A stretch of DNA of 64,000 bases from Lama glama. Its lineage: Eukaryota. Positions 10,348-63,051 of the stretch are shown one piece after another. Both the position numbers and the translations under genes were made by a program. Position 1 is the stretch's first letter, and every line of letters begins with the position of its first letter. The stretch lies in contig CM052816.1 of assembly GCA_028534125.1 (NCBI GenBank), positions 19,656,001 to 19,720,000 of the forward strand, written 5' to 3'. Below the pieces are notes generated by a model that worked only from the letters and a program-made list of their open reading frames with translations, had not been told where the DNA came from and searched no databases.

Positions 10348-12406
10348 TGTGCTAGAAAACAGATTAGAGGAAATTACCACTGCAGAATCAAAAAAAGAAA
10401 AAAGAATGAAAAGAAATGAGGATAGTTTAAGAGAACTCTGGGACAACATGAAGAGCACTAATATTCACATTATAGGGATCCCAGAAGAAGAGAGAAAAAA
10501 CCTAAGAAAATTTTTGAAGAGATAATAACCCAAAACTTCCCCAACTTGGGAAAGGAAACAGTCACCCAAGTCCAGGAAGCACAGACAGTTCCACACAGTA
10601 TCAACCCACAGAGGAACACACCAAGGCACATAGTAATCAAATAGACAAAAATTAAAAGATAAGGAGAAAATACTAAAATTAGCAAGAGAAAAGCAACAGA
10701 TAACATACAAGGGAACTCCTACAAGGTAATCAGCTGATTTTTCAGCAGAAACTCTACAGGCCAGAAGGGAATGCCACAATAAATTCAAAGTGATGAAAGG
10801 GAAAAACTTACAACCAAGAATACTCTATCCAGCAAGGCTCTCATTTAGATTTGATGAAGAAATCAAAAGCTTCACAGATAAACAAAAGCTAAAAGAATTC
10901 AACACCATCAAACCAGCTTTACAACAAATGTTAAGGGAACTTCTCTAGTCATCAAACCGTAAGAAAAGAGAACAAAAAGAAGAAAGAGGAAAAAAAGACT
11001 ACAAAAGATTGCTTTGACAATTTGGGGTATTTAGTGGTTCCATATAAATTTTGGAACTGTTTGTTTTACTTCTGTGAAAAATGTTATGAGTATTTTGACA
11101 GGGGTTGCACTGGATCTGTAGATTGCTTTGGGTAGTACAGCCATTTTGATAATATTGATCCTTCCAATCCAAGAGCACAAGATACCTTTCCATTTCTCTG
11201 TACCATCTTCAACTTCCTTCATCAATGTTTTACAGTTTTCGGAGTATAGGTAACTTCCTTCATTAAGTTTATTTGTAGGTATTTTGTTGTTTTGGATACA
11301 ATGGAAATGTTTATGCCAGTTCTAAAATTCTGGTTTTTGAAGTGAAAAAAAAAAAAGTGAATGAAGGGCCACAAATGGCAAAATATCCTTGTTACAGGTG
11401 AGTTGTATTCCATTACTTACATATGCTACATCGTCTTTATCCATTCATCTATTGATGTGCACTTGGGATGCTTCCATATCCTGGCAATTATAATGTTGCT
11501 ATTAATTGCAAGGTATATGTATCTTTTTGAATTACGATTTTTGTTTTTCTTGGATACATCCCCAGGAGTGGAACTGCTGGGCCATATGGTGGTTCTATTT
11601 CTAGGTTTTTGAGAAATCTCCATATTATTTTCCATAGTGGGTGCACCAATTTATATCACCACCAACAGTGTACCAGGGTTCTTTTTTCCTCCAAATGTTT
11701 GCCAACATTTGTTATTTGCGTTCTTTTTGATGATCATCATTCTGACAGGTATGATGTGATGTCTCACTGTGATTCTGATTTACATTTCCCTGATATTAAT
11801 GATGTTGAGCAACTTTTCATGTTCCTGTTGGCCATCTGCATTTCCTATATGGAAAAATGCCTGAAGTTCTTCTGCCCATATTTTAAGTGGGTTGGTTGGT
11901 TGTTTGCTTTTTAATTGAAGTACAGTTGATTTAAAATGTTGTATTAGTTTCTGGTGTACAGCATGGATGGACTTGGAGGGCATTATGCTAAGTGAAATAA
12001 GTTAGACAGAGAAAGACAAGTACTATAAGATAACACTTACATATGGAATCTAAAAAAATACAACAAACTAGTAAATATAACAGAAAAGAAACAGACTGAC
12101 AGATGTAGAGAAGGAACCAGTGGTTATCAGGGGTAAGAGGGAAGGGGAAGGGGGAGGTGGAGGATTAAGAGGTACAAACTATCAGGTATAAAATAAGATA
12201 CAAGGATGTACTGTACAATATGGGTACTATAGCTAGTATTTTATAATAACCATAAATGGAGTATAACCTTTAAAAATGTGTGAATCACCATACTGTATAC
12301 CTGTAACATATAATGTATATCAACTACAGTTCAATTACAAAAATATGATATTGTAAAACACATACATAAATTTTAAATGGTAAAAATAAATAAATAAATA
12401 AAATAC
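10348..12406 (+). mobile_element. Rearranged L1-derived composite, copy 1: sense ORF1 3' part, antisense ORF2 pieces, sense L1 3' end, (AAAT)n tail
   Basis: ORF1-like sequence to ~11006; minus-strand ORF2 peptides ([32 protein letters not shown]); candidate TSD AAGTACT at 10341-10347 and 12407-12413. Confidence 0.8.
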
Positions 12407-12666
12407 AAGTACTCTGTAAAATGTAAAATGCTAAACATTAGGCATAATTATTATCATTTTAAATGCAAGACCTCAGATACACAAATATGTAAAAGTAATT
12501 GCAAGAGGATGTGCATCATACCATTATTTGCAACAGAAAAAAACTGGAATGACCAAAAAGTAAATAGCATCTCAATATTATACTGCAAAATTCTCAGTGG
12601 ATACACAAGAAACGTAAGTGGAAACTTATATACACTTTTACCTTTTTTGTTGCTGTTGTTTTGTTT

Positions 12667-12788
12667 TGGGGAGGGTAATTAGGTTTATTTATTTATTATT
12701 ATTTTATTTAATAGAGGTACTGGAGATAGAATCCAGGACCTCATGCATGCTAAGCACACACTCTACCACTGTGCTATACCCTCCCCCC
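12667..12788 (-). mobile_element. tRNA-derived SINE (Vic-1-like)
   Basis: Reverse complement of GGGGAGGGTATAGC..GTGGTAGAG..CTTAGCATGCA..GGTCCTGG.TTC; shared AAACCTAATTACC tail. Confidence 0.85.
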
Positions 12789-12916
12789 TACACTATTACT
12801 TTTCAAACTTACTCTTATATACTAATTACTTTTATTATAAACAAAGATAATGTTTACCAATTTAAAAATCTGTAATTTTCCTAAAGAATTCTGTATTTGT
12901 CTGTTTGTTTGTTTGG

Positions 12917-13031
12917 TGGGAGAGATGTAATTAGGTTTCCTTATTTATTTTCAGAAGAGGTACTGGGGATTGAACCCAGGACCTTGTGATGCTAAGCATG
13001 CACTCTACCACTTGAGCTATATCCTTCCCCC
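12917..13031 (-). mobile_element. tRNA-derived SINE (Vic-1-like)
   Basis: A box and B box (GGTTCAATCCC) plus shared tail. Confidence 0.85.
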
Positions 13032-13105
13032 ACAAATTCTATACTGTTTTACTTAAAACCAAGTATAGTGAAATATTTATGCTATGTAAAAAAGTGAAAG
13101 TTTAC

Positions 13106-13215
13106 CATGTATTCTGAAGGAGCCATAAACTCAATAGTAGCATTTTGAACTTCAGGTCTTCTGTGAGGTTCTCCATAGACTCTGGTCAAAGGGTTGTACA
13201 TGAATTCTTCAGGAA
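13106..13215 (-). CDS. SEC24A: SEC24A exon 9
   Basis: Acceptor catag|TT, donor ATG|GTAAAC; 110 nt; VPEEFMYNPLTRVYGEPHRRPEVQNATIEFMAPSEYM. Confidence 0.96.
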
Positions 13216-14629
13216 CTATGTAAGTTAACAACATATAATGGTAAAACTGAAAGGATTAAGTTTAATACACTTATTAAAGTATATTTAATATATGTGCATT
13301 TGGCTGTTTTCTTAATGTACGAATTTATAAATAATTGAATATAGACTAAATATACTTTGATTCTGAGTTCCATTCAATTTCCCTCCAGAATGGCACTCAG
13401 TATTTTTTACTTTTACAGCTACAATCATTGTGATTTTTCTTTTCCTATCTTCTAATATCCTCTTTGTCTTAATTCTTGGGAAGTTGTTTCCTAAAATTAT
13501 TTGAAAGGAGGATAAAAACTCATTAAATGCCAATTACTTTCTTAAATGCAAGACTAAACTTTGTCTTAAATTTCACAATGATACAAGGATAGTAACATAT
13601 GACATATGAAATGTACAGACTGGCTGCCTCTAGAAGGCTCTGGTAAAAATACTTCAAAGGTTAAAGCCTAAAGGTTTGGTGAGTTTCAATAATTAATAAG
13701 ACCTCCTGGGAACATCAATTGCCTACTGCTCATAATACACTAGTGCTCGAAGACCATTTTCTAAATTATCATTGCATCTGTCTTCCCAGTAGCTGTTTAA
13801 AAATTCAAATTCCGATATATGCTGAAGGGTCACCACAGCTTATGAAATGGTATGGGCTGCATATGAAAGTGACTTCAACCTTTACAATTTAATTTCATAT
13901 ATTGAAGCACATATTTATAAGATTTTAAAGGTATACTAAACACTATACATACACGCATTTTCTGAATTATTCTGGAGTAAAAAGAATGTTCTTTTCCTAC
14001 CCTCACTTTACTCTACACCTAAAAAAACACATATAAACAATAAAAATGATTTTTAAAAATATCTCAAGTTCCTCCATTCCCCAATGTTTAATGAAATTTC
14101 CTTCTAAACAGAGACCTAATTTTCAATGTGGATATTGGCATACCCTTTTTTCCTCTCTAATCCTAATATAATGTTATTAGTTAGGTAATATTCCTCAAAT
14201 ATAAACTATGAAAGAGTTACTAAGAGAGATTTCCTCCTCCTCAATTACTGAGAAAACTACATTCAACTAACCTTCTAGCACTGCCCACCTCCCTTCATAT
14301 AGCAGTGAATGAAGCTAATGGCAGCTACTCTGTAGACTTATTTTCTTTCACCCTAGAGAAAAGGCATGGGAAAATTTCTAAATAAAAAATTTCTTAAATT
14401 ATAGGCTTAAATAATACCATGAAATATTATGCCAGTTATTATACATTTAATATAATAAATGTAACCAAGTGGTACAAAATAGTATCACTTTTTTTGCTTA
14501 AGTATATAATTATTTATATGTAAGTATAAATGCCCAGAAAAAAGCTAACAGACGTTTATCTCTGTGTGGAAAGATTACAAGTAAATAAGACATGGTTTGT
14601 TTGTTTGTTTTTAATTTTTTTGTATGTTT

Positions 14630-14752
14630 TGGGGCGAGGTAATTAGGTCTATCTATCTATCTACCTATCTAATGGAGGTACTGGGGATAAACCCAGGATC
14701 TTGTCCATACTAAGCATGTGTTTTACCACTGAGCTATATATACCCTTCCCCC
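14630..14752 (-). mobile_element. tRNA-derived SINE (Vic-1-like)
   Basis: Same consensus with internal (TCTA)n. Confidence 0.82.
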
Positions 14753-14873
14753 ATGACTGTTAATTCTTAAAGGACAAGGTTTTTTTTTTAAACTTCACAT
14801 TTGTGTTGTCTGATTTCCCTACAATGCATGTAGAAATGTTTAAATGTTTAAAACAAAACAACACAAAACATAC

Positions 14874-15000
14874 CATCATTGACTCGGTAACATAAGTTAC
14901 ATTTCCATCTTCTTTGATCAAGAAAGCTGACAAAAGGGTTGATGTATGTCCTGCAGGAACGGCATCTCACAATTGTACTGGAGGTAACCACAGGCAATTG
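14874..15000 (-). CDS. SEC24A: SEC24A exon 8 (Sec23/Sec24 zinc finger)
   Basis: Acceptor tttcag|CA, donor ATG|GTATGT; 127 nt; QLPVVTSSTIVRCRSCRTYINPFVSFLDQRRWKCNLCYRVND with two CxxC motifs. Confidence 0.97.
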
Positions 15001-16084
15001 CTGAAAAAAACAGAACTAATTTATTAAAGGCAGTGCTCATCATGCCTAAAGTTCAAGTAATTAATCCATAACGTCCAAATAATTGTTGGGATATTGTAAC
15101 ACTGGAGAAAAAAAAACAAGGTAGAAAATGTGTCTCCCCCTCAAAAAAAAAAAAAGAAAAAGAAAAGAAAAAACAGTAAAAAGGAAAAAGAAACAAACAA
15201 AAAAAAGTGTCCATATCACCCCACAAAAAATTATGCAAATTTGTTGATTTTTTAACCCCAGTGATTTTCCTTAGGACCATTCTCATTAAATTTTCCCTTT
15301 TAAAAAGTACTTATCTTCTTATTAAAAATTAAAATTGCAAAAACAACATAGTAAATTTACATGTATCTTTGAGATGAATGGCAAAGGAAGGATCAATCTA
15401 AAAAAATGACCAATTAATTAGGAAGTTTCTTCATGCTACATTAACAGGTCACTAAGTTCTCATGAAAGAACTGTCACAAAGTAAAATATAGTTAAATTAT
15501 ATTTAAATATTCAATATGCTCCTATTTATAGCTTATCCTATATAATAAAAGATCTAAAGTATTAAAATTTTTAAAAAGGCAATACAATCCTATCACCAAA
15601 AGGAGGTTTGTTACGGGTAAGTCACTTATGTACTGATCTTCTCAGAAGTACGTGGTCACATGTCAAGGACCCAGAGTCTTAGGACAATAGTAGAGGGGCT
15701 TCTTCTTTTTTTTCCCTTCTTCTTTTTGTTTTTTCTTTTTGAAACAGCTTCTTAAAGCAACAGATTTTACTCCAAGAATTGTAGAACTGGGAAATTGGGT
15801 AAAGTCGTTTAATGAGTAAACAATTTACAACTTTTTAATATAGTATGGTTCATTTATTTTTTTTCAGTACCTCTATTCTGTTCAGTACCTCTTAAATTAT
15901 TCAATGTTTATTTTATCTCATTGTGAAAGTGTTTAGTAATCAAATTTCTGGTTGAAATACAAATAAAGGAATCTGTTAATGGTCAAATTCCGAAAGATAG
16001 CTCAAATTATTGCACTAATGTAGAAAATTCCTCATCACCAAGATAATATCCCAGAAGACATTTACTTTCACTATTAAAACATAC

Positions 16085-21076: not shown

Positions 21077-21218
21077 GGGGGGAATATATTATACTCAGTG
21101 GTAGAGTGCATGCCTACCATGCACAAGGTTCTGGGTTCAATCCCCAGTACCTCCGTTAAAAAATAAATAAATAAATAAACCTAATTACCTTATTCCCACC
21201 CTACCCCCAATTTTTAAA
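21077..21218 (+). mobile_element. tRNA-derived SINE (Vic-1-like)
   Basis: A and B boxes; TSD AATATA(C/T)TCTACCT at 21063-21076 and 21219-21232. Confidence 0.87.
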
Positions 21219-29220: not shown

Positions 29221-30105
29221 TATGATAAAACTTTTACATAAATTAAATGTAAATTAGATAAGAGTTTTTAGGTGAACTATTTAGGAATAAATTCTGTTTT
29301 ATTACTGTTCACTTAAAAGTAGTTTCTCTAAATCTTTTTGGGAACTTGAAACTTAGGTTTTGCTAAATGAAGTTAAACAATGGAAATATCTAAGTCATTC
29401 CCAAATAAAATAAGATACTGTAACTTTAACTACTGAACATAGGCTTCCTTTTACAGAGAAACTAAAGATATTTAGTACTATTAATAAATATGTTTGGACT
29501 GTAAATCAACTAAATTTCAATAAAAAATAATTATAAATAAATAAATAAATGTTTGGTGTCTCACTGAAAAAAAAATTTATGTTGTATAAGACAGCATGTG
29601 TTCTTTAGAAATCATAAATAGCCTAAGTTGACCAATCTACAGAACACTAATATAAAAGACAGCTCTTAATTGTTTACTTCTTGGTTTTCACTAGAAACTA
29701 AGGTTTTTAAAGGTTAAGAATTCTAATTAAAATATGTAATTAAAACTATTTTAAAAACTAATAAGGAAAACATCTTTGTAAGCAAAGAAAATTAAGGTAT
29801 AAGGATAGAAATGCATTTTGTTAAGGGAAGAGAAAGTAATTTTGTTCTAAAGCTGTTTAATTCTAAATGGGAAAGAAAATATAGGACAAAATATAGATAT
29901 GGAAAGTTGTACAGGTTTGTGAGGAAAAAAAATCTTTAGAAAGAAATTCCACGTATGGTCAGGACTAAGATTAGAATAAATTTAACTGAGTAGATAAATT
30001 TTAATAATAAAGGTAAAAGGGTGCAAAATCTGAATTTTATTTTTTTCTTTGTTAAGAGGACAAAAGTTTCTTAGAATACTGATCTGCTTTTAATAACAGA
30101 TTGTA

Positions 30106-30244
30106 GGGTGTAGCTCAGTGGTAGAGTGCATGCCTAGCATGCACAAGGTCCCAGGTTCAATCCCCAGGACCTCCATTAAAAATAAACAAACAAACCTAAT
30201 TATCACCCCCCCCAAAACAAACATATTTAAAAAAAATTTTTTTA
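30106..30244 (+). mobile_element. tRNA-derived SINE (Vic-1-like), nested in the ERV
   Basis: TAGCTCAGTGGTAGAG...GGTTCAATCCC; exact TSD AATAACAGATTGTA at 30092-30105 and 30245-30258. Confidence 0.9.
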
Positions 30245-30426
30245 AATAACAGATTGTAAAGTTTCTTTACCTTTCAAGTAATCTGTTATAATTTTCTATA
30301 TCTGCCTTGAAAATTTTTATTGTCACTTGGTTAAGTGAATATTATTTCACAGTGACCTGTGATGCAATCCGACTGCTTTTAAAATCCTTTTGAAATTTTT
30401 GACAAAGTTTCCAAAGATCAAATTCT

Positions 30427-31240: not shown

Positions 31241-31372
31241 CTTTTTTGGGGGGTAGGGTGGAGGGAGGTAATTAGGTTTATTTATTTATTTTTAGAAGAG
31301 GTACTGGGGATTGAACCCAGTACTTTGTGCATGCTAAGCAAGCACTCTACCACTTAAGCTATATCCTCCCCC
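31241..31372 (-). mobile_element. tRNA-derived SINE (Vic-1-like), nested in the ERV
   Basis: A and B boxes and shared tail. Confidence 0.86.
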
Positions 31373-31707
31373 AGCCATGATTTTTAGTCTTTTGTCATTC
31401 ATACAGCTGTACTCTGATATCATTGTGGAAAAAAAAAAGCTTCATCTTCAAGAAGATTCATATGCAGGACTTTCTGACAAGTAAAGGTTTTTGGTAACTT
31501 TCAGATCATACTACTGAACTGGGTAAGAAATTGAAGAATTCTAATGTAAAACCTGATGGCCTCATAAAACTGTTCATAGAAGATTTAAATCAAGGATTAG
31601 TCATACATCAAAAAAAAATGATTAGTCACAAAGGACTAAGCAAACAGACGAATATGGTTATAATTTGGAGGGAGGAGGGGTTTGTCTGAAATATTACTGG
31701 TTTTTAA

Positions 31708-38079: not shown

Positions 38080-38300
38080 TAGTGGTTAAGTAAGACTGCC
38101 TAGTTTAAATCTAGGTTCCACAACTTATTAGCTGTGTGACCTTGATCGAGTTGCTTGACTACTCAGTTTCCTTGTTAGTAAATCTAACAGTTCTTATCTC
38201 ATAGGGCTGTTGTGAGGATTAAATGAGATGATGCATATAATGCAATCTAGCACAGTGACTGGGCACAAAGTAAACAATAAATGTTAGTTCTTATTATTAC
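38080..38300 (+). mobile_element. MIR remnant
   Basis: CTTATTAGCTGTGTGACCTTG...CTCAGTTTCC...GTTGTGAGGATTAAATGAGA core. Confidence 0.75.
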
Positions 38301-40230: not shown

Positions 40231-41589
40231 AAAGGGAGAAGGAGTACATTTGCAGTCCTATGATTGCCTTCCCTATCTGACTCCTGAATTGGCTCTGAGC
40301 GACCTGTGTACAGGGACTGTTACTCGCTTTTATATTGTTAAGGACAGAACTTAGGTATGCAACAAATATCTGTTGGACTGGGTCAAATCAACATAGTGAC
40401 ATCTCCAGTACAGTATATACAGTGTCTAAACTGCTTGAACATTTCAAAATTATCAAAACTATACTTACATGTAAGTTTACAAGCATATTTGCAAGATTTA
40501 CCATTTAAAGCTCATGTAAAATTACAATTTATAGATTGTAAGAAGCCATAGCCATATGACATATTGCTTAAGTTTTTTTTTACCTTAAAGTAAATGTCTC
40601 AAAAGCATTTCACCCTCAGTGAAATTGTAACTAAATAGCCTAGAATAAAATGTAGTTTACACAATCTGTTACCATAAATTTAACAAAGAACAACTGGTTC
40701 AATTTAACACCATTCCGGTGTTCACTCCCACTTATTCTTGCTTCTGCCTACCTATCTGCCTACTCACATTTTTAAGTCTTTTAGAGCTTTCTTTGTAAAG
40801 AAAACAGCAGTCTCTAAAAACAATGTAAATTAATTATTTTATTCATTGGTTATTTTCTAGAATTTCACAGTAATATTAGATTCCAATGGGCGATTTAAGC
40901 ATTTTAATATTATTATTCTACCATTTTGTTTCCAAGAGTCAAAGATTTACAAGCAAACTGGTAACTTGGCAAACTGTTGGCAGAAAACCTGTCTTTATTA
41001 TACCAATTATGATTAACTTAGCAAATCACAATATAGGACAATGAAAAGAATTCTAGAAGAAATATAAAATTATAAGACATCATCATACCAAATGACAAAT
41101 AGTGCCACATGTACACGCTCCTTAGAGGTTCAGAAACTGTGTCCAACCTCTTTCCAAGTGACGTAAAGACTTCTTAAATCAAACGAGATCCTCTCCTGTA
41201 TTTGGTTGTTTCGAAACTAAAAAACTGAACAGGTGGCCTAACTACAATTCGGGGAAGATTCTGGGAGACATGAGCAGGCCCTAAAGAAGTCTTCGTAAAG
41301 CACAATCATTCATTCATCTCCGCAGATTCACACTGAATACGACCCCCACCATACTGCGAGACCGAAATGGATCAGATCCCAAACTATGCTCTCCAGAAGA
41401 CAGGGATGAGGTGGCGCGAAGGAGGAAGACACGTAAACAGACACCAGGAGCTTTGTATGAGAGTTCTGAGGTATGGACTGAATCTGTGTTTTTCACCCAT
41501 GTATACCCAGGGCGTTACATACAGCAAGTGCTCACCAACTATTTGTTGAAGGAATGAATAAATAAATAAATAAATAAATAAATGGGAAA

Positions 41590-42620
41590 CACTAAAACGA
41601 GCCCGGGATTGCGGCTGCATATTCGCCGTGGTCTCCGTGGCCCAGCCCGCCACCTCCATCTGCTCCTAACCCCGACAGGGAGGTCACCCTTCCCTCCTGT
41701 GCCGTCTCAGACGGCGGCAGAAACCAAAGGTCAGGTCGAGTCGGGGACCAAACTTCGCCGTCCCCGGCCACCCACCCCTCGCCCCCAGGAGGCACTTACC
41801 GTTGGTGTAGGGAGACCCCGAGGCCGAGGCGGCCCCGTTCTGGGCCTGGAGGCCCGTAGGGGCACCGCCGGAGGCCGGTATCCCGGGCTGGGACATGACG
41901 ACGACGATGTTTATCAAGGTTGGAAGGGGCTGGTCTGGGTCTGCGACAGCGCCAAGCCGAGAGCTGAAAAGACGGCCGCTGGAAGCGGAGGGAGGGGGCT
42001 AACGACTTAAGACTGAAGGCGGGATAGAAAGAAGGCGGCGCATAAAGCTCTAGGCATGGCGCCGCATTTTCCCCAGCCCGCCGGCGGCCGCCGCCTGGCC
42101 TGGGTGCTCAGGCTTGGGAGTCGGGCCGGTGGGCCCGGGAACGCCGGGTTGGGAGGCAGCAGCCAAACGCAGAGACACCCTGCGAGGCCCCGGCCGGAAC
42201 TGCCTGTCAGCCGGAGCCCGCGCAGGCGCAGTCGGGACACGTGGCACTTCCGGCTCCGGCTCCGGCCTCGCGGCGGGCTCGGCGGTAGGTGATCTCTTCT
42301 CTCCCAGCGGGGCTGCCCAGAAGCCACCTGACAGCTCGGGGTGTCCCGGCCCGAAGGACCATGCTCGGTCTCGCCTGCCACGTCACTGACTCTTACCGTC
42401 GGCCGGAAGTGGCGTGTGTCACAGCCACGGAAATCCCCGCCGTCGTGAACGTCATCGCTCCCGCACGGTCGGGATCTGAGGGCAGCTTTCGTGGAGTGGG
42501 ACTGACAGTTCCTCTCCTCCAGTTTTTGTGACGATTACCTGAGATCTCAAACGTCTTCGTCCTCTGTTGAGGCTATACCTCGGGTAGCTGAACCGATTAA
42601 TAATCATCGCAGTATTTCAT
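41590..42620 (-). promoter_or_regulatory. SEC24A: CpG island / SEC24A promoter and 5' UTR
   Basis: Abrupt GC- and CpG-rich segment covering exon 1; ETS motifs (ACTTCCGG ~42246, CCGGAAGT 42403-42410); TGACGTGG on minus strand at 42378-42385. Confidence 0.9.
41800..41896 (-). CDS. SEC24A: SEC24A coding exon 1 (start codon; MSQPGIPASGGAPTGLQAQNGAASASGSPYTN-G)
   Basis: ATG at 41896 in GTCGTCATG context within a CpG island; 97 nt; donor G|GTAAGT; N-terminus matches mammalian SEC24A as I recall it. Confidence 0.96.
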
Positions 42621-43559: not shown

Positions 43560-43697
43560 CTTTCTTTTTAAATTTTTTTGGGAGGAGGTAATTAGGTTTA
43601 TTTATTTGTTTATTTTTAATGGAGGTACTGGGGATTGAATCCAGGGCCTCATGCAGGATAAGCATGCACTCTACCACTTGAGCTATGCCCTCCCCCA
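43560..43697 (-). mobile_element. tRNA-derived SINE (Vic-1-like)
   Basis: A and B boxes and shared tail. Confidence 0.86.
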
Positions 43698-45619
43698 TAA
43701 TCCTTTATTTTTTTTTAATGCAACTCCTTAATGATCTTGGTTGGTTGACCTTGACACAGGAGTTTGATCTGGTTAAATCAAGTTTTCTTTAGACTTTGTT
43801 CTGTTTAAGCAATGTCTGTGTTCAGAAAAAAACTGATGGAGAAGGATGAGCCATTTTAGAAAGTAACCTCTGGCTAAATCAGGTTAAATAAACAAATAAT
43901 TTGCTAATAAGTAAACAATGCTTTTTCTAAAGTTTGTTCCATCGCTAAGTATCCTGTTGCTATTATCAAGTGCCCCTCAAAAACAAACAAACAAAACTGT
44001 GGTTAAGTCTTTCAGATGTTTTTTACATTTTCAGTGTAATCAGCTTTAAAATATTGAGCGAAAAAGCAGCATTTATCATTTTCACACCCTCAGGAAAATA
44101 GTAGGAAAATAAGTTTAAGTAATTTAGGTGAGATAACATATTTTAAAAGTTAAGTAATTTTCATTTTATATATTATCTACACATTGTCAATTCCTTCTCT
44201 TGCTTTTTAGTGTATGGCCACATGAATATTAAGGAAAAATTATTAGTGCTACTACCAGTTGTTAAGGGTATTGATATGTCTTTGGTCAGTTACCTATTTC
44301 TACCCTACACTACCATACACTTTTCTAAACTAATGTAATAAATTCTACTTTGTTATTCTTGTTTTCCAGAACAAGACCCTCCTACCACATATGTCCCTTC
44401 ATGTATCTATGTATCAGGTTTTCTGCACATTATTTTCAGAGCCTTCAACCTTATTTAAGAAAATTATAAACAACAAAACAAGTGACACAAAAATGTTTCA
44501 GTAATGAGACAGCACTATACAAAGACTATTAAATTAAATTTGATTACTTATTTAGACCCCAAAGAGGGAGATAAACCTTCCTAATAAAATTTGTTGATAT
44601 GCAGAAGTGGACTTGGGTTCACACCAGTCTAAGTCCACTTTGCCTGCCTGCTCATGACTGTTTAATTGTCAGCTGATAAGCAGGACCAATTCTGTTTACT
44701 TTTCAGGATGGGGGATATTATTTTAGCTCTCTTAATTATTTTTTTAATTATTCTATTTCTATTTCAAACAAAAGTTTCAATTACAAACAACAGGTTTGTT
44801 CTGAAACTATCCTGTACCTCCATTTTAGGAACAGTTCCTTTAGCCTCATTTGCCTCTGACAGAACATCTGTTTGTATCTAAAATCAGCAGCTCTGAAGCT
44901 GCAAGTACACTCATCCCACACCAAGCCAGTAAATCCCACTGCTTTCTTGGAAAACTTTTCACCTTTATGTAGGTATTGCCATTCTCATTGCCCACTCTGG
45001 TTAGTTTTCATCATCTTGTACTTGAACTACTGGGGGGTAGTCTTTCTGGTTTCAATCTCTCCCATCCATCCTACTTGTTGAATTAAGCTCCTAAATACTG
45101 ATTCCATTTTTATTTTCCTGTACCCCAAAACCTGTAATGCTCCCTGTGCCTGCCCCATCAAGTTAAAATTTCTTTGCACGGCTTTTCTCATCTCGTGCTG
45201 ACTAAAATCCAAAGTCCTACTCATAGCCTTCGAGGCTTCACATGACCGGGCCTTGCTACCTCTCCCTCCTCATCTTCCCCACTCCCTCTTACTCACTCCA
45301 CTCCAGAAACACTAGCTGTTTCCCTAGCTACCCAAGCACAAGCCTGCCGTAACCCTTATTTCCATTACCTGGGACGCTCTTCCCCAAGACACCCGTGTAG
45401 CTCTCAATCTTTGAGTGTTTATTCAAATGAGACCTTTTGACGAGGCCTTCTCTGAACACCCTATACAACAGCATACCCTCCCTGCTCACTTTCTATCCCT
45501 CTCACCCTGCTTTTTTTTCTTCATAACACTTCTCATCATTGTCATACATTTGTGTTTATGTTTCTCTTTCTCCATTGGGATAAGATTCTATATGCATCCT
45601 GACAATTCTAAGGTAATCA

Positions 45620-45891
45620 TTTTTAAAATTTTTTATTGAAGTGTAGTTGATTTACAATGTTAGTTTCAGGTGTACAGCAAAGTGATTCAGTTATACACAC
45701 ATACATATTTTCTTTTCAGATTCTTTTCCATTATATTATTACAAGAAATTGAATATAGTTCCTTGTGCTATACAGTAGGTCCTTGTTGTTTATCTGTTTT
45801 TTATATAATAGTGTGTGTCTGTTAATCCCCAACCCCTAATTTAGCCCTCCCTGCCCTTTCGCCTTTCATAACCATAGTTTGTTCTCTGTGG
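45620..45891 (-). mobile_element. 5'-truncated L1 3' end inserted in an L2 remnant
   Basis: TTTTATTGAAGTGTAGTTGATTTACAATG...; exact TSD AAGGTAATCA at 45610-45619 and 45892-45901. Confidence 0.85.
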
Positions 45892-49272: not shown

Positions 49273-49406
49273 AAACATCCATTAGCAAAGAGCGGCAGTG
49301 GAGTCAAGACAGCCTTGTTTAAGGCTCAGTACCGAGTACCCAATATATTATCTGGCACATAGTTCACATTTTGTAAATTACTTATTGAACTCAGGAAAAA
49401 GGTGTA

Positions 49407-49584
49407 GTTTGTTTTTTTCCAATTCTTATTTTTTATTGAAGTGTAGTCGATTTACAACGTTAGTTTCAGGTGCACAACAAAGCGATATACATATATATTT
49501 CTTTTTTTCCTTCAGATTCTTTTCCATGAAAGCTCATGACAAGAAACTAAATATAGTTCCCTGTGCTATACAGTAGGTTCTTGT
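49407..49584 (-). mobile_element. 5'-truncated L1 3' end next to the SAR1B CpG island
   Basis: Same L1 3' consensus; imperfect TSD A(G/A)GAAA(A/C)AGGTGTA at 49393-49406 and 49585-49598. Confidence 0.8.
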
Positions 49585-50350: not shown

Positions 50351-51429
50351 TCGAATAGTAGTTAACGTATTGAGCTAGCCCAAGTCCCAGTTGAGTAAGG
50401 AAAAGATACACTTTTGGGGGGAAAACAGTAATGGCTTATAAACTGTTCCAAGAGTTTCCAACAAGGTAGAAATTGATTTTGACAACAGTTAAAACTTTGA
50501 TATCGTTGACCAAAAGAATCAAACTTGTCAAGAAATTTAAGGTATTAGCATCTTTGGGCAAAATAAGGTGAAATTTTTTAATCTGAAAAATTAAACCTAA
50601 TGTTAGTTGCACGTTTTCATATCAAGATCTGTGCTATCACTGTGTCTCTTAAGAATGTCCGGTGTTCAGTGTTAAAGTACCATTTACAGTAAATCACAAT
50701 GAAGCAAATGAAAGAAAAAAAAGGAACATTTATTGTCTACTATGTGTAAAGCGCCAGCTATGCACACAACAATCCATTAAGGAAGTAGTAGTATCACCTC
50801 TATTTTACATATGAGGGATAAAGGATGATTTACATTTTGTCAATAACTGTTGATGCTGATATTTTAAGGCAATATGTGTATCTAACACTGTTCTAGAGGA
50901 CTTGCATTCCTCATCAAAATATTTTGAACTTTAAACACTTAATAGTTTGTTAGCATTTTCTGAGTTTGCAGAAAAGGGAGGTGATGCCCTCATTTTAGAA
51001 GTATTAGAGAAGCATTATCAGAATATGAAGATAAGCAGTTTCAATAAGTTAAACAATTTTAACGTTCCTTTGCCTTGCACTTCAAGCAAGAATTGAGACA
51101 AAAGATTAGGCTATCAGAAATGAATGTCACTGCCACATCATTTGAAGCTTATAAATCAGAATTCTGCAGTAATGATTCATTATTTCTTCTTAAGTACATT
51201 ATTTCTTCTTAAGTACACTTGGCTGGAATTCATTTAAATTATTTTTCTGCAAAACATTACCAAGCAAATAATTTTAAGATCACGGTATTGAAAAGTTTCT
51301 CTTCTTTGTGTATAGAACAATCTGAATTAAAATTATTTTAGTGATTGAATTTGTTATTGCTTATGTCAGTTTTTATTTTCTTAGTTCATTATAGGCAAGT
51401 TCAGTACTCAGGGTCTCAAACAACTTTTT

Positions 51430-52205
51430 AAAAATTAACTTATTTTTATTGAGGTGTAGTTGATTTACAATGCTGTGTTAGTTTCAGGTGTACAGCAAAA
51501 AATGATTGTACATATACATACATATATATTCTTTTTCAGATCCTTTTCCATTATAGGTTATTACAAGACACTGAATACAGTTCCCGGTGCTATATGTAGG
51601 TCATTGTTTATCCATTTTATATATAGTAGTGTGTATATGTTAATCCCAAACTTCTACTTTATCCCTCCCTCCACCCTTTTCCCCTTTGGTAACGATAGTT
51701 TGTTTTCTGTGTCTATGAGTCTATTTCTGGTTTGTAAATAAGTTCATTTGTATCTTTTTTTTTAAGATTCCACATAAAAGTGATATCATGTGATATTTGT
51801 CTTTCTTTGTCTGACTTCACTTAGTATGATAATCTCTAGATTTATCTGTGTTGCTGCAAATAGCATTATTTCATTCTTTTTTATGGCTGAGTAGTATTCA
51901 TTGTGTATATACTCCACATCTTCTCTATCCATTCATCCGTTGATGGACATTGAGGTTGCTTCCATGTCTTGGCTATTGTAAATAGTGCTGCCATGAACAC
52001 TGGGGTGCATGTATCTTTTAGAGTTAGAGTTTTCTCCAGACACATGCCCAGAAGTGAGACAGCTAGATCATATAAGTCTATTTAGTTTTTTAAGGAATCT
52101 CCATACTATTTTCCAAAGTGGCTGCACCAAATTATATTCTCACAAACAGTGTAGGAGGGTTCCTTTTTCTCCACATCCTCTCCAGCATTTATTATTTGTG
52201 GACTT
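51430..52205 (-). mobile_element. 5'-truncated L1
   Basis: L1 3' UTR and ORF2 C-terminal text on minus strand. Confidence 0.83.
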
Positions 52206-52523: not shown

Positions 52524-52653
52524 TTTTTTTAGGTTTGTTTGTTTGTTTGTTCGTTTGTTTATTTATTTATATTTGGAGGAGGTACTGGGGATTGAACCCA
52601 GGACCTTGTGTATGCTAAGCATATGCTCTACCTCTTGAGCTATACCCTCCCTC
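52524..52653 (-). mobile_element. tRNA-derived SINE (Vic-1-like)
   Basis: A and B boxes; exact TSD TGTCACTGTCCATT at 52510-52523 and 52654-52667. Confidence 0.88.
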
Positions 52654-52676
52654 TGTCACTGTCCATTATTTTAGTA

Positions 52677-53319: not shown

Positions 53320-53636
53320 TGTATGTGGAATCTAAAAAAAAATGACACAAATGTACTTATTTATAAAACAGAAACAGACTCACAGACATAGAAAACAAAC
53401 TTAAGGTTACCGGGGTACGGCAGGCAGAGAGAGAAAGTGGGAGTTTGGGATTTGCAGATACCAACTACTGTACATAAAATAGATAAACAATCCTACTGTA
53501 TAGCACAAGGAACTATATTCAATACCTTGCAACAGACTATAATGAAAAAGAATATGAAAAAGAACATATTATATAACTTAGTCACTATGCTGTACACCAG
53601 AAATTAACACATTGTAAACTGACTACAATTTTTTTA
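53320..53636 (+). mobile_element. 5'-truncated L1 3' end
   Basis: GTGGAATCTAAAAAA...ACAGACTCACAGACATAGAAAACAAAC; TSD AAGTT(A/G)TTAA. Confidence 0.8.
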
Positions 53637-54877
53637 AAAGTTGTTAAAACTGAAGTTAATTTGAAAACTGGCATTTAAAGTTTTATGTTTTGAATGTCAG
53701 TTAATTTAGTCTGAACTGTGTAGTATTCAAAGTGTTTTCATATACATTATTGTATTTAATCATTTGCACCATTCTGTGAGGCAGGTGGTATTTCCCCTTT
53801 ATGTAGGATCAAACTTGGGCTCAGGAAGATTGGCATTCCCAGAATGAAATAATAGTATTTCAAAAGATGCATATTAACTTTAGATTTTTAAAATTCTAGG
53901 ATAGGTACTCCATCCATTTTACTACAGTTCTACCATGCATTGCTTCCTGAAGTTACTAATGTATTGATCCTAGAATCCTGTTCTGATAATTGTATTTGCC
54001 TCTTTAGAATATTATAGCTTTTATTTTCTCCCAGCACTACTTTCTGGAATATTTGTATCTTGTCATCTTATGTGTATTTTTTCCTCAGGTGTATTTTTTT
54101 TAAGTTCAAACCTAAATGACTTTGCTAAATTACTTATATTAACTACCTGTAAATATTAAAAGTCCATGTGAATTTTTAAGTTAATTTTCTTTAATTTTTT
54201 AATAATAGCTTTTTTGAGAGAGAGTATATACCATAAAATTTACCCTTGTAAGTGTACAATTTAGTGTCTTTGGTATATTCATAACATTGTGCAACCAGCA
54301 TCACTAACTTCAGAACATTTTCATCACCCCAAAAGAAACCCATTAGCAGCCAGTCCCCATTTCCTTTTCCCCCTAATCTGACAACCACTAATCTGCTTAC
54401 TGTAAAGATTTGCCTATTCTGGACATTCCATATAAATGCAATCATCCACATAAGTTTAATGGGACAAGACTTTAAGAAGTTTTTGTAATCTGAGAATTTC
54501 TGTTCCATTACACCCTTTGGACTGATTTTCATGTTACTTGAGTAGATCACTTCTAATCTGCATAGCGACTTTTCTTGTTTGGTGCTCATGCAATAAATAA
54601 ATCTGCTGACGTGTATATGTTTCCTTGTTCGTGACCTTTGCTTTTCACATGTCTTAATAGTGTGTTCATGGTGTTGTGTAACCTGTTCTCAGGGCTCAGG
54701 TATCTGTTTGTGGCTAAGTAACTTTTATTCTTAGTCGGGCATTTTTACTTCTACTTTAAAGTGGCTAATGACTCCTAGCTTGTTTTAAGGATCTTAGAAA
54801 CCATAACTTTTTTAGAAAATATAAATATCTCGTTATCCTTTTTGTTAATATAAATTTGAAAAAATTTAACCCATTAT

Positions 54878-54990
54878 ATTTATGTATTTATGTATGTATT
54901 TATGTATTTATTTAGTGGAGGTGCTGGGGATTGAACCCAGACCTCATGCATGCTAAGCACACAGTCTACCACTGAGCTGTACCCTCCCCC
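54878..54990 (-). mobile_element. tRNA-derived SINE (Vic-1-like)
   Basis: A and B boxes; (TATG/TATT)n tail. Confidence 0.84.
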
Positions 54991-55849
54991 TTTATTATCT
55001 TCTAAAGAAGAGTTTCCTCATGTATGTTACTAGATTATTTACGTTGGGACAAATTTTACAACAGCAAATTGGTACCATCCTTATGCCGAAAATCCTTTTA
55101 CCTTCATGTCTTACCCACTCCACCTTCCACCAGTCCTCATGGCTCTCACCTACCAACAGTCATCCTCAGTGAGGACTTTGCCACTTGATTCACAGTCTTG
55201 CTTTGTATAGCACTGCCCTCCAGTCTTCTAGATGATGCAACTGCCTGTCAGTGTGGACAGTGTGCCCTGTAGCACAGCCTCCCATATCTTTCATCCAGTT
55301 CTCTTCAGCTGTCCATGCTGGAGCCAGGTCTTGGAACTTGCCACCACCCAGATGTGATCCTTTCTTGAACTCTGAACCCCACGTTTTTCTGTTTGCTGGC
55401 ACAATTCTGACCCACCTTTCACTTCTCGCACCCGTTTACTTCACCTACACCTGCTTTTCGACTAAAGGCTTTTCCCGTGTTCTCCCAGTTCTATTCTCTG
55501 AGGAGCCTGCCTTTGATCCCTACCCCATTCCCATATACTGTCTGCCTTTACACCTCTATCCACTCAGCCTGAACTTCTGATCAGATCACTTCAGAGGATG
55601 CTGTGTCACTAGTACTCTCAAGGTGCTGTTCCCCTGTCTTTTCTCAGTTGCTGTTCTGAAAGTCCCTAAATCCCCATTCACTCAATGTTTCTTTCTCATT
55701 CACTCATGTTCTCTAAAGCTGAGCACTGCTGAGAGGGTTGGGTAGGGGAGGGATAGAAATCAGTGCAGATTGGCACTGCTGTGGGTGTTTTTCAATCCTA
55801 GCAATTGGCTCTTTTTAGCAATCTTTAAACTTGATCTTTTCCCCACAGT

Positions 55850-55962
55850 TAATTAATAAATTTATTTGTTTTGGGGGGGAGGTAACTAGAGGTACTGGGG
55901 ATTGAATTTAGGACCTTGTGTATGCTAAGCATGCAGTCTACCACTTGAGCTAGATCCTCCCC
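55850..55962 (-). mobile_element. tRNA-derived SINE (Vic-1-like), internally shortened
   Basis: Recognisable head and GGGGGGAGGTAA tail. Confidence 0.8.
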
Positions 55963-56195: not shown

Positions 56196-56201
<6 letters not shown>

Positions 56202-57116: not shown

Positions 57117-58081
57117 ACTATACAACAGATTCAAGATGACATTTTGGTGAAGCTACTTTGGAGGGTATGTATAGATGGGGAGAAACACATTTGGATACTA
57201 AGATGGTAGTTTAGGAAAGTGATGTAAAGTTCTTCATCAGGTAGCTCCTGTGGGAATCAACGCTTGAGACTTCACCACAGAAACTGAGAGAATTGAGGAA
57301 TAACTAGATGTGGGATGTGAGGGAGAGGAAGGAATTACATGTCAGAGTCATGAGCTGGAGTAATTAAAAAATGGTACGTAATCATTTAAACAACTTTAAA
57401 ACTATTGTTAAAAAGCTTTAGAGAGTCAGTGCAGTGTAAGGAAAGGGGGATGGACATGGAAGTCAGAAAGACTCAGGTCTGAAATTTAGATGTGCCAATC
57501 ACTAACAGTTGAGTTTTATTTACTGTAACTTTAGCTTCTTCAGTAAAATGGGAACATGATATATTCATTTTGAAAGGTTGTTGGGGTGTTTAGCGGTGAT
57601 AAAGTGCCTAGGACTGTGGGCCGTATAGGAGAAGAAATAATAACAACAGCTAAAATTGGTACCTCCTCGGTGCCAGATACTCAATGCTTTGTGTGTAGTA
57701 ATTAATCTTCAACACAACCATCTCGGGTAGGTACTATAATCCCCATTTTACAGATGAGGAAAGTGAAGTAGCTTACCTAAGGTGGATGGCAAATGGTAAA
57801 GCCCTAGCTCCAGAGCTCCTGCTCTTAAGCTCTAGGCCATAATGCCATAGGGGTTCAGTAAATGGTAACTGATTTTTTTTGTTTATTTTGCTTTGTTTTA
57901 TTAAATTGAAAGACTGACTTCGTATTGTTTCTTCTTAAAAGTAGCAGGCATGAAGAACACATGTCTAAATTTAGTCTCAGATTTGTTTATTAATCTGGCT
58001 CCTGCCTCACTAATTAGCACCTGTTGATTTTTACTCTGTTTGTGGTCCCTAACCCCAATCATATCATTTAACAATTCCTGT

Positions 58082-58191
58082 GGGGAGGGTATAGTGCAAG
58101 TGGTAGAGCATATGCTTAGCATGTATGAGGTCGTGGGTTCAATCCCCAGTACCTCCTCTAAAAAGATAAATAAACCTAAAAAAACAAAACA
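58082..58191 (+). mobile_element. tRNA-derived SINE (Vic-1-like)
   Basis: GGGGAGGGTATAG..GTGGTAGAG..GGTTCAATCCCC; TSD AACA(A/G)TTCCTG. Confidence 0.88.
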
Positions 58192-60269
58192 AACAGTTCC
58201 TGACTTTTTGCTGTACCCATTCAGTTTCAAGATTCAGGCTAAACATCATCCAAGAAACCTGTCCTTAGCTGTACCTTGATGCTGCCATAGAGGACTTTGG
58301 ATGTAGAAACAAGCAGGACTGGTTTTCTTTTTTTATATTTAATATGTAAAGAGCACTTGTGAGCATACCATGCCTCTGGTTGGTATGCTCACAAATACAT
58401 CATATCTCTTCTATTATTTATTTTTATTATTTTGTTTTTATGCTCTTATGATCATTAATCCTTTAGTAGTTTAGGATTTAAAATATGGGCGGGTTTTTCC
58501 TTTTATTTGTGTAAGTCTTGAAACTCTATAAGGTAAGTTGTTACCATTTTAGATAATATCCTATTCAGTTTTAAAATTTTTCAGTTCAATTGCCTATGTG
58601 TAGCTAACTTATCAGTCTATAACCTTTTTGAGAGAAAGAGCCATGTTTGTCATCAGTATTTGTACTCCTCATGATGTCCAGCTTGGATGTAATGTGAGCA
58701 TGGTAAATATGTACTGAATTTAATATATCAACACACTTCTCCTTTGAGTCTCTACAGTGAAAATTATGATGATACCCTAAAAATCTTTGGATAAAATGAG
58801 CCACTTGTATATATTATCTCTGACTACAAGTTTCAATTTATACATGACCTAAAATGATAATTAGTAGAAGGAGGTGTAATTTTGAACTTGAGTAAAATAA
58901 GAACTTCTGAGACAGTAGATTCTTGTGTATTTATGCTGCTGTTGTAGTTCTCATTCTTGTGATACTGGCACGTGAAACTATTCATAATTTGCCAGTCACT
59001 CTGTTTTAAACAGGATTTGGCTAGTTGCGAAAACAAAATTCTTCATATACTAGTTCAACTAAGAAGGGGATGATAGAAGAGGGAGAGACTGTTGTCAGGA
59101 TCCTGGCACTCTCCTAGTAAATACTGCTAGGCCTTGTACAAGCTGGAGGTAGGTTGTCTCTTTCCTCTGTGTTTCATTCTCAAGGTGATATGGTCTCTTA
59201 ACATCTTATCCTCCAGGAATTCTAAGTTTGGTGGGCCCATCTGTGTCCAGCTTGGCAGCTCACCAGAGGGAGAGGTGTTAAAGAAAGCAGTGTTGTGTGT
59301 CATACTTTGTCTAAAGAATATCAAAGATAGCACAATCCTACAAACTTTCTGGACTTGACCCAAGTTTTGGGCCTGGGTTCTTTTGTTCAGCTCTAGAAAA
59401 TGAACTTTGTTGATCTAAAAGCGTATTTTTATATAAGTGATCTTTCTTTTCTCAAGAGTCTTTTTTCTCTTATTTTCCATATTAGCTATATTAGTTTATC
59501 AAGCACGTGTCAAGTAAATGCTGAATTGAACTATCCTGTGCATTTCTACTGCGATTTCATAATTTTTTTTTACATTTAGTAACATGATTAAAATTTGAAA
59601 TATGCAGGAAGATAATAACCCCCCAAATTTACTGTCTGGTACCAACTGTTACAAAAGACCAAAAGAAATAGAAAAAGGGTTTTTACACCACATAGGTATT
59701 ATTAGACTTAGAAATTTCATGATCATGAATTTCCTTTCTTCTCTTTTTTCCCTTCTTTCCCTTCCCCCACTCCAAGGTTTTGGTAAATATTTCATAGGCC
59801 ATATATAGTGTATTTGATTTACTACTGAACATAGATTATCTCCAAAATTTTTCCTGTGTAACACTTTGATGCACATCTTTATACATAAAGCCTTTCCATA
59901 GTTAGGACAATTTCTAAAAGTAGAATTCTTGGGTCAAATGGTATGGTACAGTATTGCCAAATTGGTTTTGAAAAAGATTTGTACCATTTTATACTGCCAC
60001 TAAGAATGTTTTCTAGTCCTGATTGTTATAATTCTTTTTCACATTTGCTACTTTGATGGGCAAAGAATGGTCTCTACATGATATTTTAATTGGATTTTGT
60101 TTTTTATGCATCAATATAGATGAAGTTAGACCAATATAGATATGGTTAGATAAGAATAACTTTGGATAAGAGTAAGGTTGTTGCAGGATTATTTACTCAA
60201 AGTTAATGTTTAATGTTGGCTACTAAATTCAAAACACTTTTTTCTCCCCAGATCCTATAAGATTTGGAT

Positions 60270-60327
60270 ATGTCCTTCATATTTGACTGGATTTACAGTG
60301 GTTTCAGCAGTGTGCTACAGTTTTTAG
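60270..60327 (+). CDS. SAR1B: SAR1B first coding exon (exon spans 60252-60327), MSFIFDWIYSGFSSVLQFL-G; N-terminal amphipathic helix of the COPII small GTPase
   Basis: Acceptor tttttctccccag|AT, ATG at 60270, donor TAG|GTAACG; peptide matches the SAR1B (not SAR1A) N-terminus as I recall it; adjacency to SEC24A fits known synteny. Confidence 0.95.
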
Positions 60328-61731
60328 GTAACGTTGGCAATTTGTTCTCTTCTGTTATCCCATTTAATCCTACTTATATAAAAATGTCTTTTATTTGTCT
60401 AGAGCCTCTGTGTTATATAACCTAGTAGTTATAAATGTGGGCTCTAAAATCATACATTTTAAGTTACTCATTATACTTGTTATAAAGTGTGTAATCTTTG
60501 ACAAATTACTTTCTCCACTTTAGCCTTAATTTTCTTATCTGTTAAAATAGTAATAATTGCTACCTCTGAAGGTTGTTGATAGAATATTAACAGGAATAGC
60601 TACCATTTATTAGCCAGTTTATCAAAGAGCTTTAATCTCATTTAATCCTCACAAGAATCCAATGCATTATTTTTTAATTATAAACATGCATGATCCATGA
60701 ATGCCTTGTATATCATAAATGACAGTTTATAACCTGCTAAATGAGATTTGTTTACCCAACAGTTCTGACTAGTGATTTTCCTCTCTTTATACATTTTAAA
60801 GATAGGAAAAATCTTAGCTTCTTTTTTTTTTTTACTGACATCCTTGACTTAACACGTTTTTCAGTGAAACAGGCTTTTGATTAACTTTTATGTTGGGATA
60901 TGCACAACATTATTATTGTAATAACTAATGAAAATATTTCTCATCTCTCTTTTCAAATTTTGCCCTAAGTTTAGTCTCTCTGTAATCATCTTGTGAACTG
61001 GCTGAAAGAGAAGCATTTCATGTAATTACAGGGTGGTCAACATAGTTTCAAACTGACCACTGTTGTACTTATGGAATGGTGTCTCCTATGCAAATATTCT
61101 TTCTCCACAAACATAATCTTAACCTGGAAAATAAATTGTGTTTGGGAAATATAAATTTTTTTGACTACTGTATATTAAAGGGATAAAAATGTAAGCTCAA
61201 ATTTTGTCACTGTATTTTTATTTCTTAGTTGAACTTTAACATTTGCAAATTTTAAAAACCCAGGATGTTTTCTTTTTCTTTTTAAAAATGAAATTCTTCA
61301 CACTATTTTATACTACTGCTCTACTACAGATCAAATGTCAGATCTCTCTATACTACCAAGAGAATTCTTAAATCTTTCTATCAGACTGAAATATTTTGTC
61401 ACGTATTTGTAACAACTGGGTCAGAAATAGGGCTTTTTAAACTATATTATACTGGGATTTGTGGTTATAACAGGTTGGAATCTCTATCTCAGTTTACAGA
61501 ACAATGAATCTATGTGAATTATGTTGAAAAGGCAAAACAGATTGCATCATAATCAGGAACAAGAAAGTTAATAGTGCTAACACTAGGAAGCAGTGTAGAG
61601 AAATGGAAATGAACCAAAGCTATGGGATTAGACTTGCGTTCAAATCTCAGATCTGACTCTAGCATTTAAACAAGTTAACTCTGAGTCTTCATCATTTCCC
61701 CACTGTGAAAAAGAGGATAATGCTACTTCAA

Positions 61732-63051
61732 CAAGATCGACCCAAAGAGGAATACAACAAGGCACATAATATTCAAATTGACAAAAATTAAGGATAAGGG
61801 GAAAATAATTAAAATCAATAAGAGAAAAGCAACAAATAACATACAAAGGAACCTCCTGTAAGGTTATCAGCTGATTTTTCAGCAGACTCTACAGGCCAAG
61901 AGGGAATGCCACAATATATTTAAAGTGATGAAAGGGAAAAACTTACAACCAAGAATACTCTATCCAGCAAGGCTCTCGTTTAGATTTGATGAAGAAATCA
62001 GTAGCTTCACAGACAGACAAAAGCTAAAGTAATTCAGCACCACCAAACCAGCTTTACCACAAATGTTAAAGGAACTTCCCTAGTCATCAAACTACAAGAA
62101 AAGAGAACAAAAAGAAGAAAGAGAAAAAAAAGACCTACAAAAGATTGTTTTGGCAATTCAAGATCTTTTATGATTCCATATAAATTTTGGAATTGTTTGT
62201 TCTAGTTCTGTGAAAAATGTTATATGAGTATTTTGACAAAGGTTGCATTGGATCTGTAGATTGCTTTGTGTAGTATGACCATTTTGATAATGTTGATTCT
62301 TCCAATCCAAGAGCACAAGATACCTTTCCATTTCTTTGTATCATCTTCAACTTCCTTCATCAGTGTTTTACAGTTTTCAGAGTACAGGTAACCTCCTTGG
62401 TTAGGTTTATTTCTAGGTATTTTGTTGTTTTTGATGCAGTGGAAATGTTTATGCCAGTTCTAAAATTCTGATTTTTAAAGTGCAAAAAAAGAAAAAGAAA
62501 AAAGCGAATTAAGGGCTGCATATGGCAAAATATCCTTCTTTTTTGTGGGTGAGTTGTGTTCCATTGCATATAAATGTTACATCTTCATTATCCATTCACC
62601 TATTGATGTGCACTTAGGACGCTTCCATGTCTTGCCAATTGTAAATATTGCTTCTATTAATAGCAGGGTGTTATGTATCTTTTTGAATTAATGTTTTTGT
62701 TTTTCTTGGGTATAGCCCCAGGAGTGGAATTGCTGGGCTATATGGTGGTTCTGTTTTTGGGTTTTTGAGAAAACTCCGTATTGTTTTCCGTGGTGGCTGC
62801 ACCAATTTACATTACCACTAATAGTGTACAGGGGTTCCTTTTTCTCCACATCCTTGCCAACATTTGTTATTTGTGTTCTTTTTGATGATCACTATTCTGA
62901 CAGGTGTGAGATGGTGTCTCATTGTGGTTTTGATTTGCATTTCCCTGATATTGGTGATATTGAGCAGCTTATCTTGTTCCTGTTGGCCATCTGCATTTCC
63001 TCTTCTGGAAAAATGTCTGTTCATTCCTTCTGCCCATAATTAAAAAAAAAA
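61732..63051 (+). mobile_element. Rearranged L1-derived composite, copy 2, inserted in a MIR remnant
   Basis: Same segment order and junctions as 10600-11880; A10 tail 63042-63051; candidate TSD ACTTCAA at 61725-61731 and 63055-63061. Confidence 0.8.

Follow-up and report, generated by a model that had tools for sequence, protein, structure and literature searches.

Two LINE-1 insertions with a common rearranged body in a 64-kb window of the llama genome, probable relics of a HAL1-like element

The window analysed here is a stretch of 64,000 nt from Lama glama (CM052816.1 of assembly GCA_028534125.1, positions 19,656,001 to 19,720,000, forward strand). Its minus strand carries SEC24A-type exons (PF04811), with the first coding exon near 41896, and its plus strand a SAR1-type first coding exon near 60270; we take the two genes to be SEC24A and SAR1B. 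Two introns of these genes hold insertions of sequence from LINE-1 (L1), a long interspersed element: copy A (10348–12404) lies inside a SEC24A intron, antisense to the gene, and copy B (61732–63051), 51 kb away, lies in the SAR1B intron that follows the gene's first coding exon, in the sense orientation. The insertions are old and dead, and they have one rearranged L1 body in common. As argued below, they probably derive from a non-autonomous, HAL1-like element.

Anatomy of the two copies

When the window was compared with itself, A (10595–11886) and B (61731–63044) aligned with 85.7% identity over 1,318 columns (E 0.0). This is the only long self-match within the window, and it begins and ends at the boundaries of B. 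No homology extending past the ends of either copy was detected in this comparison, and the flanks of A and B are unrelated. Three internal junctions and a linker are common to the two copies. Orientation flips at an identical junction (junction 1; A ~11007, B ~62143), the antisense C-terminal piece of the second L1 open reading frame (ORF2) restarts at an identical base, and the linkers agree at 54 of 59 aligned letters. An earlier sequence-only reading of this DNA had reported the same L1 mosaic twice, with a common flip, linker and antisense C-terminus start, and had given the copies different flanks, separate A-rich tails and short candidate target-site duplications (TSDs). On all of these points our comparison agrees with it.

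The pieces were placed on the human L1 proteins and on L020, a contaminated contig with an uninterrupted L1 ORF2. The sense piece is identified as ORF1 by the domain PF17490 (ORF1 C-terminal domain, E 4e-23) and by a match to human ORF1p, and the flipped pieces match human ORF2 amino acids (aa) 779–850, 1072–1142 and 1194–1242. Read along the plus strand, A consists of the sense end of ORF1, a spacer, antisense ORF2 (aa ~760–860), a linker of ~56 nt, antisense ORF2 (aa ~1065–1245), a 56-nt antisense L1 3′ terminus, the sense end of ORF2, the 3′ untranslated region (UTR), an extension and a tail (Table 1). We call the stretch at 10949–11007 a spacer on the assumption of ordinary L1 anatomy. The linker gave no match above shuffled sequence to four L1 reference stretches on either strand. 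The pieces retain L1 order on the plus strand; two of them are flipped in place, and the stretches between them are lost. The earlier description of the ORF2 pieces as out of order is correct for the minus strand only, and the word scrambled overstates the rearrangement.

Missing from both copies are ORF2 aa 1–759 and ~861–1064; the two remnants that are left are antisense and carry frameshifts common to both copies. ORF1, by comparison, is present in sense with its own stop in place in each copy, as its 3′ part only (both copies are 5′-truncated), and neither copy contains a promoter or an ORF1 start. At its 3′ end A has ~520 nt more than B, made up of 20 nt of antisense ORF2, the 56-nt antisense L1 3′ terminus, the sense end of ORF2, the 3′ UTR, the short extension and the tail. 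B lies wholly within the extent of A and ends inside the second flipped piece at an ATTAAA that runs into an A-run, 20 nt short of A. Because the flipped piece of B has the same left end to the base and a right end 20 nt short, B has been shortened at either end, and A keeps the longer, ancestral form. The claim that one mosaic runs through both copies thus holds for the three junctions and the linker but not for the 3′ end.

Table 1. Features of copies A and B, in window positions
Copy	Feature	Positions	Strand	Remarks
A	5′ candidate TSD	10339..10347	+	8 of 9 letters equal the 3′ copy, 7 exact; begins with an A-run, as at L1 endonuclease sites (site preference from PMC12016303)
A	5′-truncated L1 ORF1	10348..10948	+	~200 codons, broken by stops and frameshifts; stop 10946–10948
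A	Start of ORF1–ORF2 spacer	10949..11007	+	Up to junction 1; position after the ORF1 stop observed directly
A	Flipped ORF2 piece	11008..11310	-	Human aa ~760–860; frameshifting deletion common with B
A	Linker	11311..11366	none	Internal A-run
A	Flipped ORF2 C-terminal piece	11367..11906	-	Human aa ~1065–1245; 1-nt deletion common with B
A	56-nt antisense L1 3′ terminus	11908..11963	-	A only; at the inversion junction
A	Sense ORF2 end and L1 3′ UTR	11961..12341	+	A only; starts within 2 nt of the end of the flipped C-terminal piece (L1 coordinates)
A	Short extension and A-rich tail	12342..12404	+	A only; extension past the usual L1 end; four AATAAA overlap within the tail that follows it
A	3′ candidate TSD	12405..12413	+	
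B	5′ candidate TSD	61725..61731	+	7 exact; longer imperfect version possible
B	5′-truncated L1 ORF1	61732..62083	+	~117 codons, broken; stop 62081–62083
B	Spacer	62084..62143	+	Up to junction 1
B	Flipped mid-ORF2 piece	62144..62448	-	
B	Linker	62449..62514	none	A-rich run longer than that of A
B	Flipped ORF2 C-terminal piece	62515..63044	-	~20 nt shorter than that of A
B	ATTAAA into A-run	63039..63051	+	Candidate premature poly(A) end
B	3′ candidate TSD	63055..63061	+	

In the coordinates of L020, the second flipped piece of A ends at position 3469 and the sense piece starts at 3472, and a second reference, an L1 copy inside the window, gives the identical abutment. The 3′ module of A has twin-priming geometry; an in-place DNA inversion would look alike. 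Twin-primed (5′-inverted) L1 insertions were reportedly described by Ostertag and Kazazian in 2001. Among human twin-primed L1 insertions, the two ends lie within 20 bp of each other in 132 of 287 cases, and 5′ inversions are given as 18–22% of human L1 insertions (PMC12016303). A resembles such insertions in that its flipped C-terminal piece ends no more than 2 nt from the start of the sense 3′ piece. Twin priming, however, produces a single inversion whose ends are particular to the event, and it puts no sense ORF1 ahead of that inversion. The module described here was inherited by two copies, follows ORF1 and another flipped piece, and bears 56 nt of additional L1 end at its joint. A search by eye for a TSD around the inverted-plus-sense module showed only a weak A-rich likeness between the end of the linker and the sequence after the L1 end. 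The sequence-only reading had set twin priming aside, yet its geometry is just what the 3′ module of A displays, and this would have been passed down from a master locus.

The 56-nt terminus (11908–11963) is 82–85% like three other L1 ends in the window and 73% like the sense end of A itself. It sits exactly at the inversion joint, without a clear TSD. A centroid fold pairs it with 12288–12341; the folding of the 3′ part of A gave a z of 0.89, with 82 of 100 shuffles folding equally well. Between the usual L1 end and the final tail of A lie ~40 nt (12342–12381), possibly flank carried along from the master locus.

As to the reference contigs, mammalian L1 ORF2 occurs in L020 (about 1500–3950), L017, L018 and L019, of which one is a contig of a viral collection and three are bacterial genome records. 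These are cases of contamination or chimeric assembly in public collections, and the four stretches served only as coordinate references.

Insertion hallmarks, common lesions and the search for further copies

Both copies end in an A-rich tail of their own, and each is bracketed by an exact direct repeat of 7 nt, a candidate TSD. A repeat of at least 7 nt occurs in 1.9–2.2% of random 20-nt pairs drawn from the window, an approximate figure, the windows compared at the copies having been picked after inspection. Together, the short, old tails and end repeats lend moderate support to retrotransposition hallmarks in both copies. The ATTAAA hexamer of B is missing at the corresponding place in A; it could mark a derived subfamily or may be partly tail. 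Insertions of L1 and SVA that are 3′-truncated by premature polyadenylation have been described (PMC4859970), and B is like them in ending at an ATTAAA and an A-run well before the 3′ end of A. It is unlike them in that its site lies in antisense ORF2 sequence.

Copy B itself seems to be inserted into an older repeat, presumably of the MIR type, since 61590–61731 and 63061–63170 are colinear with 38090–38285. The match is statistically weak: with one target its score was reached by 12 of 300 shuffles, and with a second target by 59 of 300.

Within the mid-ORF2 piece, 8 of 80 residues are common to A and B yet rare (1.7–6.7%) among 120 listed database relatives, and each ORF2 piece carries one frameshift common to the two copies. 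These rare residues and frameshifts indicate that the ORF2 pieces decayed before A and B split. The ORF1 overlap of 115 codons contains no stop or frameshift common to A and B, although the contrast between ORF1 and ORF2 in common lesions is not significant over so short a stretch. None of the 120 ORF1 relatives has two of the three rare ORF1 residues common to A and B. Divergence at non-CpG sites is uneven by segment (8.5, 9.6 and 13.6%; chi-square p 0.035). Masters that differed in their histories explain this pattern better than a single duplication does, but local rate variation or gene conversion between the two repeats could also cause it. The overall A/B divergence of ~14% implies an age of roughly 30 million years, at a mammalian neutral rate that we assume from general knowledge.

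The copy number given here, two, is that of the 64-kb window. Further copies were sought in collections with little or no DNA of this animal. No junction-spanning frame was found among the best 120 of 735 protein hits, in the single hit of a second protein search, or among the 149 newly listed of 191 protein hits; those listed were all ordinary L1 frames. In metagenome contigs, the linker-side motif had no match and the junction-1 motif fell on 16 chance loci, none homologous beyond a short A-rich extension. The linker motif met one locus in genome contigs, also by chance, and an ORF1 scan of viral contigs gave no match. Since the protein and contig collections returned none of the window's own frames, these blanks are weak negatives.

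One database protein (P0001) has 4 of the 8 rare mid-ORF2 residues, whereas 90 of the 120 listed proteins have none and no other has more than two. The probability of such a match is about 0.01 over the 120 listed and 0.06 over the 735 hits, which were preselected for likeness to A. P0001 may be an earlier-branching relative, to judge from its residues. Fourteen public runs each contain half or more of the words sampled around A, so that this stretch is present in other samples. The five RNA runs among these are no evidence of expression, because A lies in an intron.

A probable HAL1-like element and the competing explanations

The identical junctions, the unrelated flanks, the separate tails and end repeats and the lesions common to the ORF2 pieces together make a rearranged master mobilised in trans the best reading. 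In our view A and B are likely to be dead copies, each inserted on its own, of a non-autonomous L1 derivative that resembles HAL1. The sequence-only reading had likewise proposed a master mobilised in trans, for which the features just listed speak; the abundance that it ascribed to the family is a probability argument only.

The anatomy of such a master can be read from the copies: ORF1 and the spacer formed its front half, two ORF2 remnants followed in flipped orientation, and an L1 3′ end closed it. The 3′ module of the master would have come from one twin-primed L1 insertion or from an in-place inversion of equal geometry. The master would have kept the L1 5′ promoter and would have been transcribed and polyadenylated. 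Having no ORF2 protein of its own, it would have borrowed that of autonomous L1s, in line with established L1 biology, and its own ORF1 protein may have helped in cis (for the trans step, the promoter and the role of ORF1, see PMC4859970 and PMC5322556). Target-primed reverse transcription would then account for the 5′ truncations, tails and short end repeats seen in both copies, with A made via the L1-derived 3′ end and B via an earlier poly(A) site inside a flipped piece. Both copies have since decayed, and no selection on ORF1 is detectable.

The kind of element, with ORF1 kept and ORF2 lost, is already known as HAL1. The sources cited describe HAL1 elements as coding for ORF1 alone, as having a poly(A) end and TSDs and as dependent on full L1s (PMC5753468, PMC13756887, PMC5322556, PMC4161310). 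HAL1-type elements arose several times in mammals (PMC5753468), and lineage-specific Repbase families include HAL1_Ssc of pig (PMC6501411) and HAL1-1A_ML and HAL1-3_ML of bats (PMC3342881). The element described here is like HAL1 in its sense ORF1, the loss of an ORF2 frame, its poly(A) tail and candidate TSDs, and its proposed dependence on ORF2p. It is unlike HAL1, going by those descriptions, in that its 3′ body consists of two flipped ORF2 remnants and a linker and that two 3′ ends were in use. Also typical of HAL1 are an intact master ORF1 under purifying selection, an L1 5′ UTR promoter and many dispersed copies; here the window holds two copies, both with a decayed ORF1. Literature searches found no camelid HAL1. 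The present element is undescribed in the literature found, which is not proof of absence, Repbase, Dfam and the supplements of a camel repeat survey (PMC8605555) being outside the scope of the searches; the main text of that survey contains neither 'HAL1' nor 'ORF1'. A casein-cluster paper shows that L1-2_Vpa and other alpaca L1 entries are in Repbase (PMC6726744). Should the family be real, half-L1s would have one more independent origin, in a lineage whose repeats are thinly curated, and the family would lend itself naturally to asking whether mobilisation in trans is promoted or impeded by antisense L1 sequence. Standard annotation would break each copy up into four or five L1 fragments with no link between them, and its count of L1 inversions would be wrong.

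Several observations weigh against a HAL1-like family. The position of B wholly inside A is what would be expected of a copy of A; a promoter and ORF1 start are found in neither copy; and part of the A-run of B could derive from the target. Between A and B, ORF1 differs by 10 synonymous and 24 non-synonymous changes, with a ratio of non-synonymous to synonymous change (pN/pS) of 0.74–0.96 (p 0.27–0.53) and thus no purifying selection. This ratio is as expected of dead copies, and two dead copies give little power. At one position that is Trp in human ORF1p and in 89% of relatives, both copies have Cys. P0001 lacks the common deletion and four of the rare residues. No third copy bearing a junction or the linker emerged from the protein, metagenome and genome-contig searches, and the window holds no shorter, 3′-only copy. 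Finally, a pair within 64 kb becomes likely only if the genome has about a thousand copies or more. If insertion is random over about 2 Gb, the expected number of 64-kb windows with two copies is 0.16 at 100 copies, 16 at 1,000 and 360 at 5,000, so that one must choose between a local event and a family that numbers roughly a thousand or more.

The local event would be this: A is a single rearranged or nested L1 locus, and B a DNA-level copy of its middle, pasted 51 kb away during break repair, with no family behind either. Both ends of B fall inside A, the two lie within 64 kb of each other, the two ends of A could belong to a single L1 insertion that has one end repeat, the pieces of A follow L1 order, and no third copy was found in the collections searched. 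Repair-mediated duplications exist (Pace et al. 2009, PMC2671141), and B is like them in that a stretch recurs on one chromosome while its flanks do not and, weakly, in having apparently landed in an older repeat. Of the human cases in that source, 824 of 1,136 lie within 5 kb; proximal ones reach at most 619 bp, with a TSD in 6 of 39 and a poly(A/T) tract in 0 of 39, and distant ones reach 3,424 bp. At 1.3 kb, 51 kb away and tailed, B falls far outside the proximal class (up to ~5 kb distant and ~620 bp long, no poly(A)); the rarer distant class is possible for it. Also against a local copy are the ATTAAA and A-run at the 3′ end of B and the separate end repeat of B; uneven divergence along the common part is not what one duplication would give, and P0001 hints at a third lineage. 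The sequence-only reading had named homology extending into the flanks as the sign of a local duplication. None was seen, but a flank test would not exclude a local copy here, B lying inside the extent of A. We regard a local copy as unlikely, though it is the main rival; if B is one, the pair is an ordinary curiosity.

A rearranged L1 locus might instead have given a handful of passive retrocopies in the manner of processed pseudogenes, leaving no lasting family and giving ORF1 no role. The retrotransposition hallmarks of both copies, an ORF1 without selection and the common change at a conserved Trp would all be accommodated. With 100 copies or fewer in about 2 Gb, however, fewer than 0.2 windows of 64 kb genome-wide would hold two, and we judge this account improbable.

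Going beyond a HAL1-like origin, A and B could belong to an abundant, undescribed camelid retroelement in which the ~840 nt of antisense ORF2 are functional. The RNA may pair with the mRNA of a helper L1 and so place its own tail beside newly made ORF2 protein, a way of being mobilised in trans that requires no 7SL or tRNA structure. Alternatively, dispersed copies may supply antisense small RNAs throughout the genome, directed at the L1s on which the element depends. Nothing here gives positive evidence for a docking or silencing role, a bold proposal to which we give very little credence.

Two independent ordinary L1 inversions, common as 5′ inversions are in human L1 (PMC12016303), are ruled out by the three common junctions, the non-L1 linker and several common lesions, and an assembly artefact is hardly conceivable with an A/B difference of 14%, too large for a duplicated contig, and with at least half of the sampled words around A present in the fourteen public runs.

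Other repeats in the window

Five short L1 3′-end pieces, 71–82% alike, lie at 10058–10262, 45617–45890, 49405–49584, 51420–51830 and 53322–53665. Two of them have identical letters past the poly(A) signal, and one lies ~100 nt upstream of A. Just downstream of the 3′ end repeat of A is an AT-rich imperfect palindrome (12421–12464, 77% over 44 nt). A GC-rich island at 41500–42600 contains the first coding exon of the presumed SEC24A, which stands head to head with the presumed SAR1B, whose first coding exon is ~18 kb downstream. A short interspersed element (SINE) of 75–150 nt, which we take to be of the camelid Vic-1 type, has at least 11 copies in the window, 73–90% alike; these include 12646–13050, 14619–14771, 21078–21208, 30105–30263, 31249–31373, 43574–43714, 52544–52654, 54887–54991, 55887–55962 and 58068–58195.

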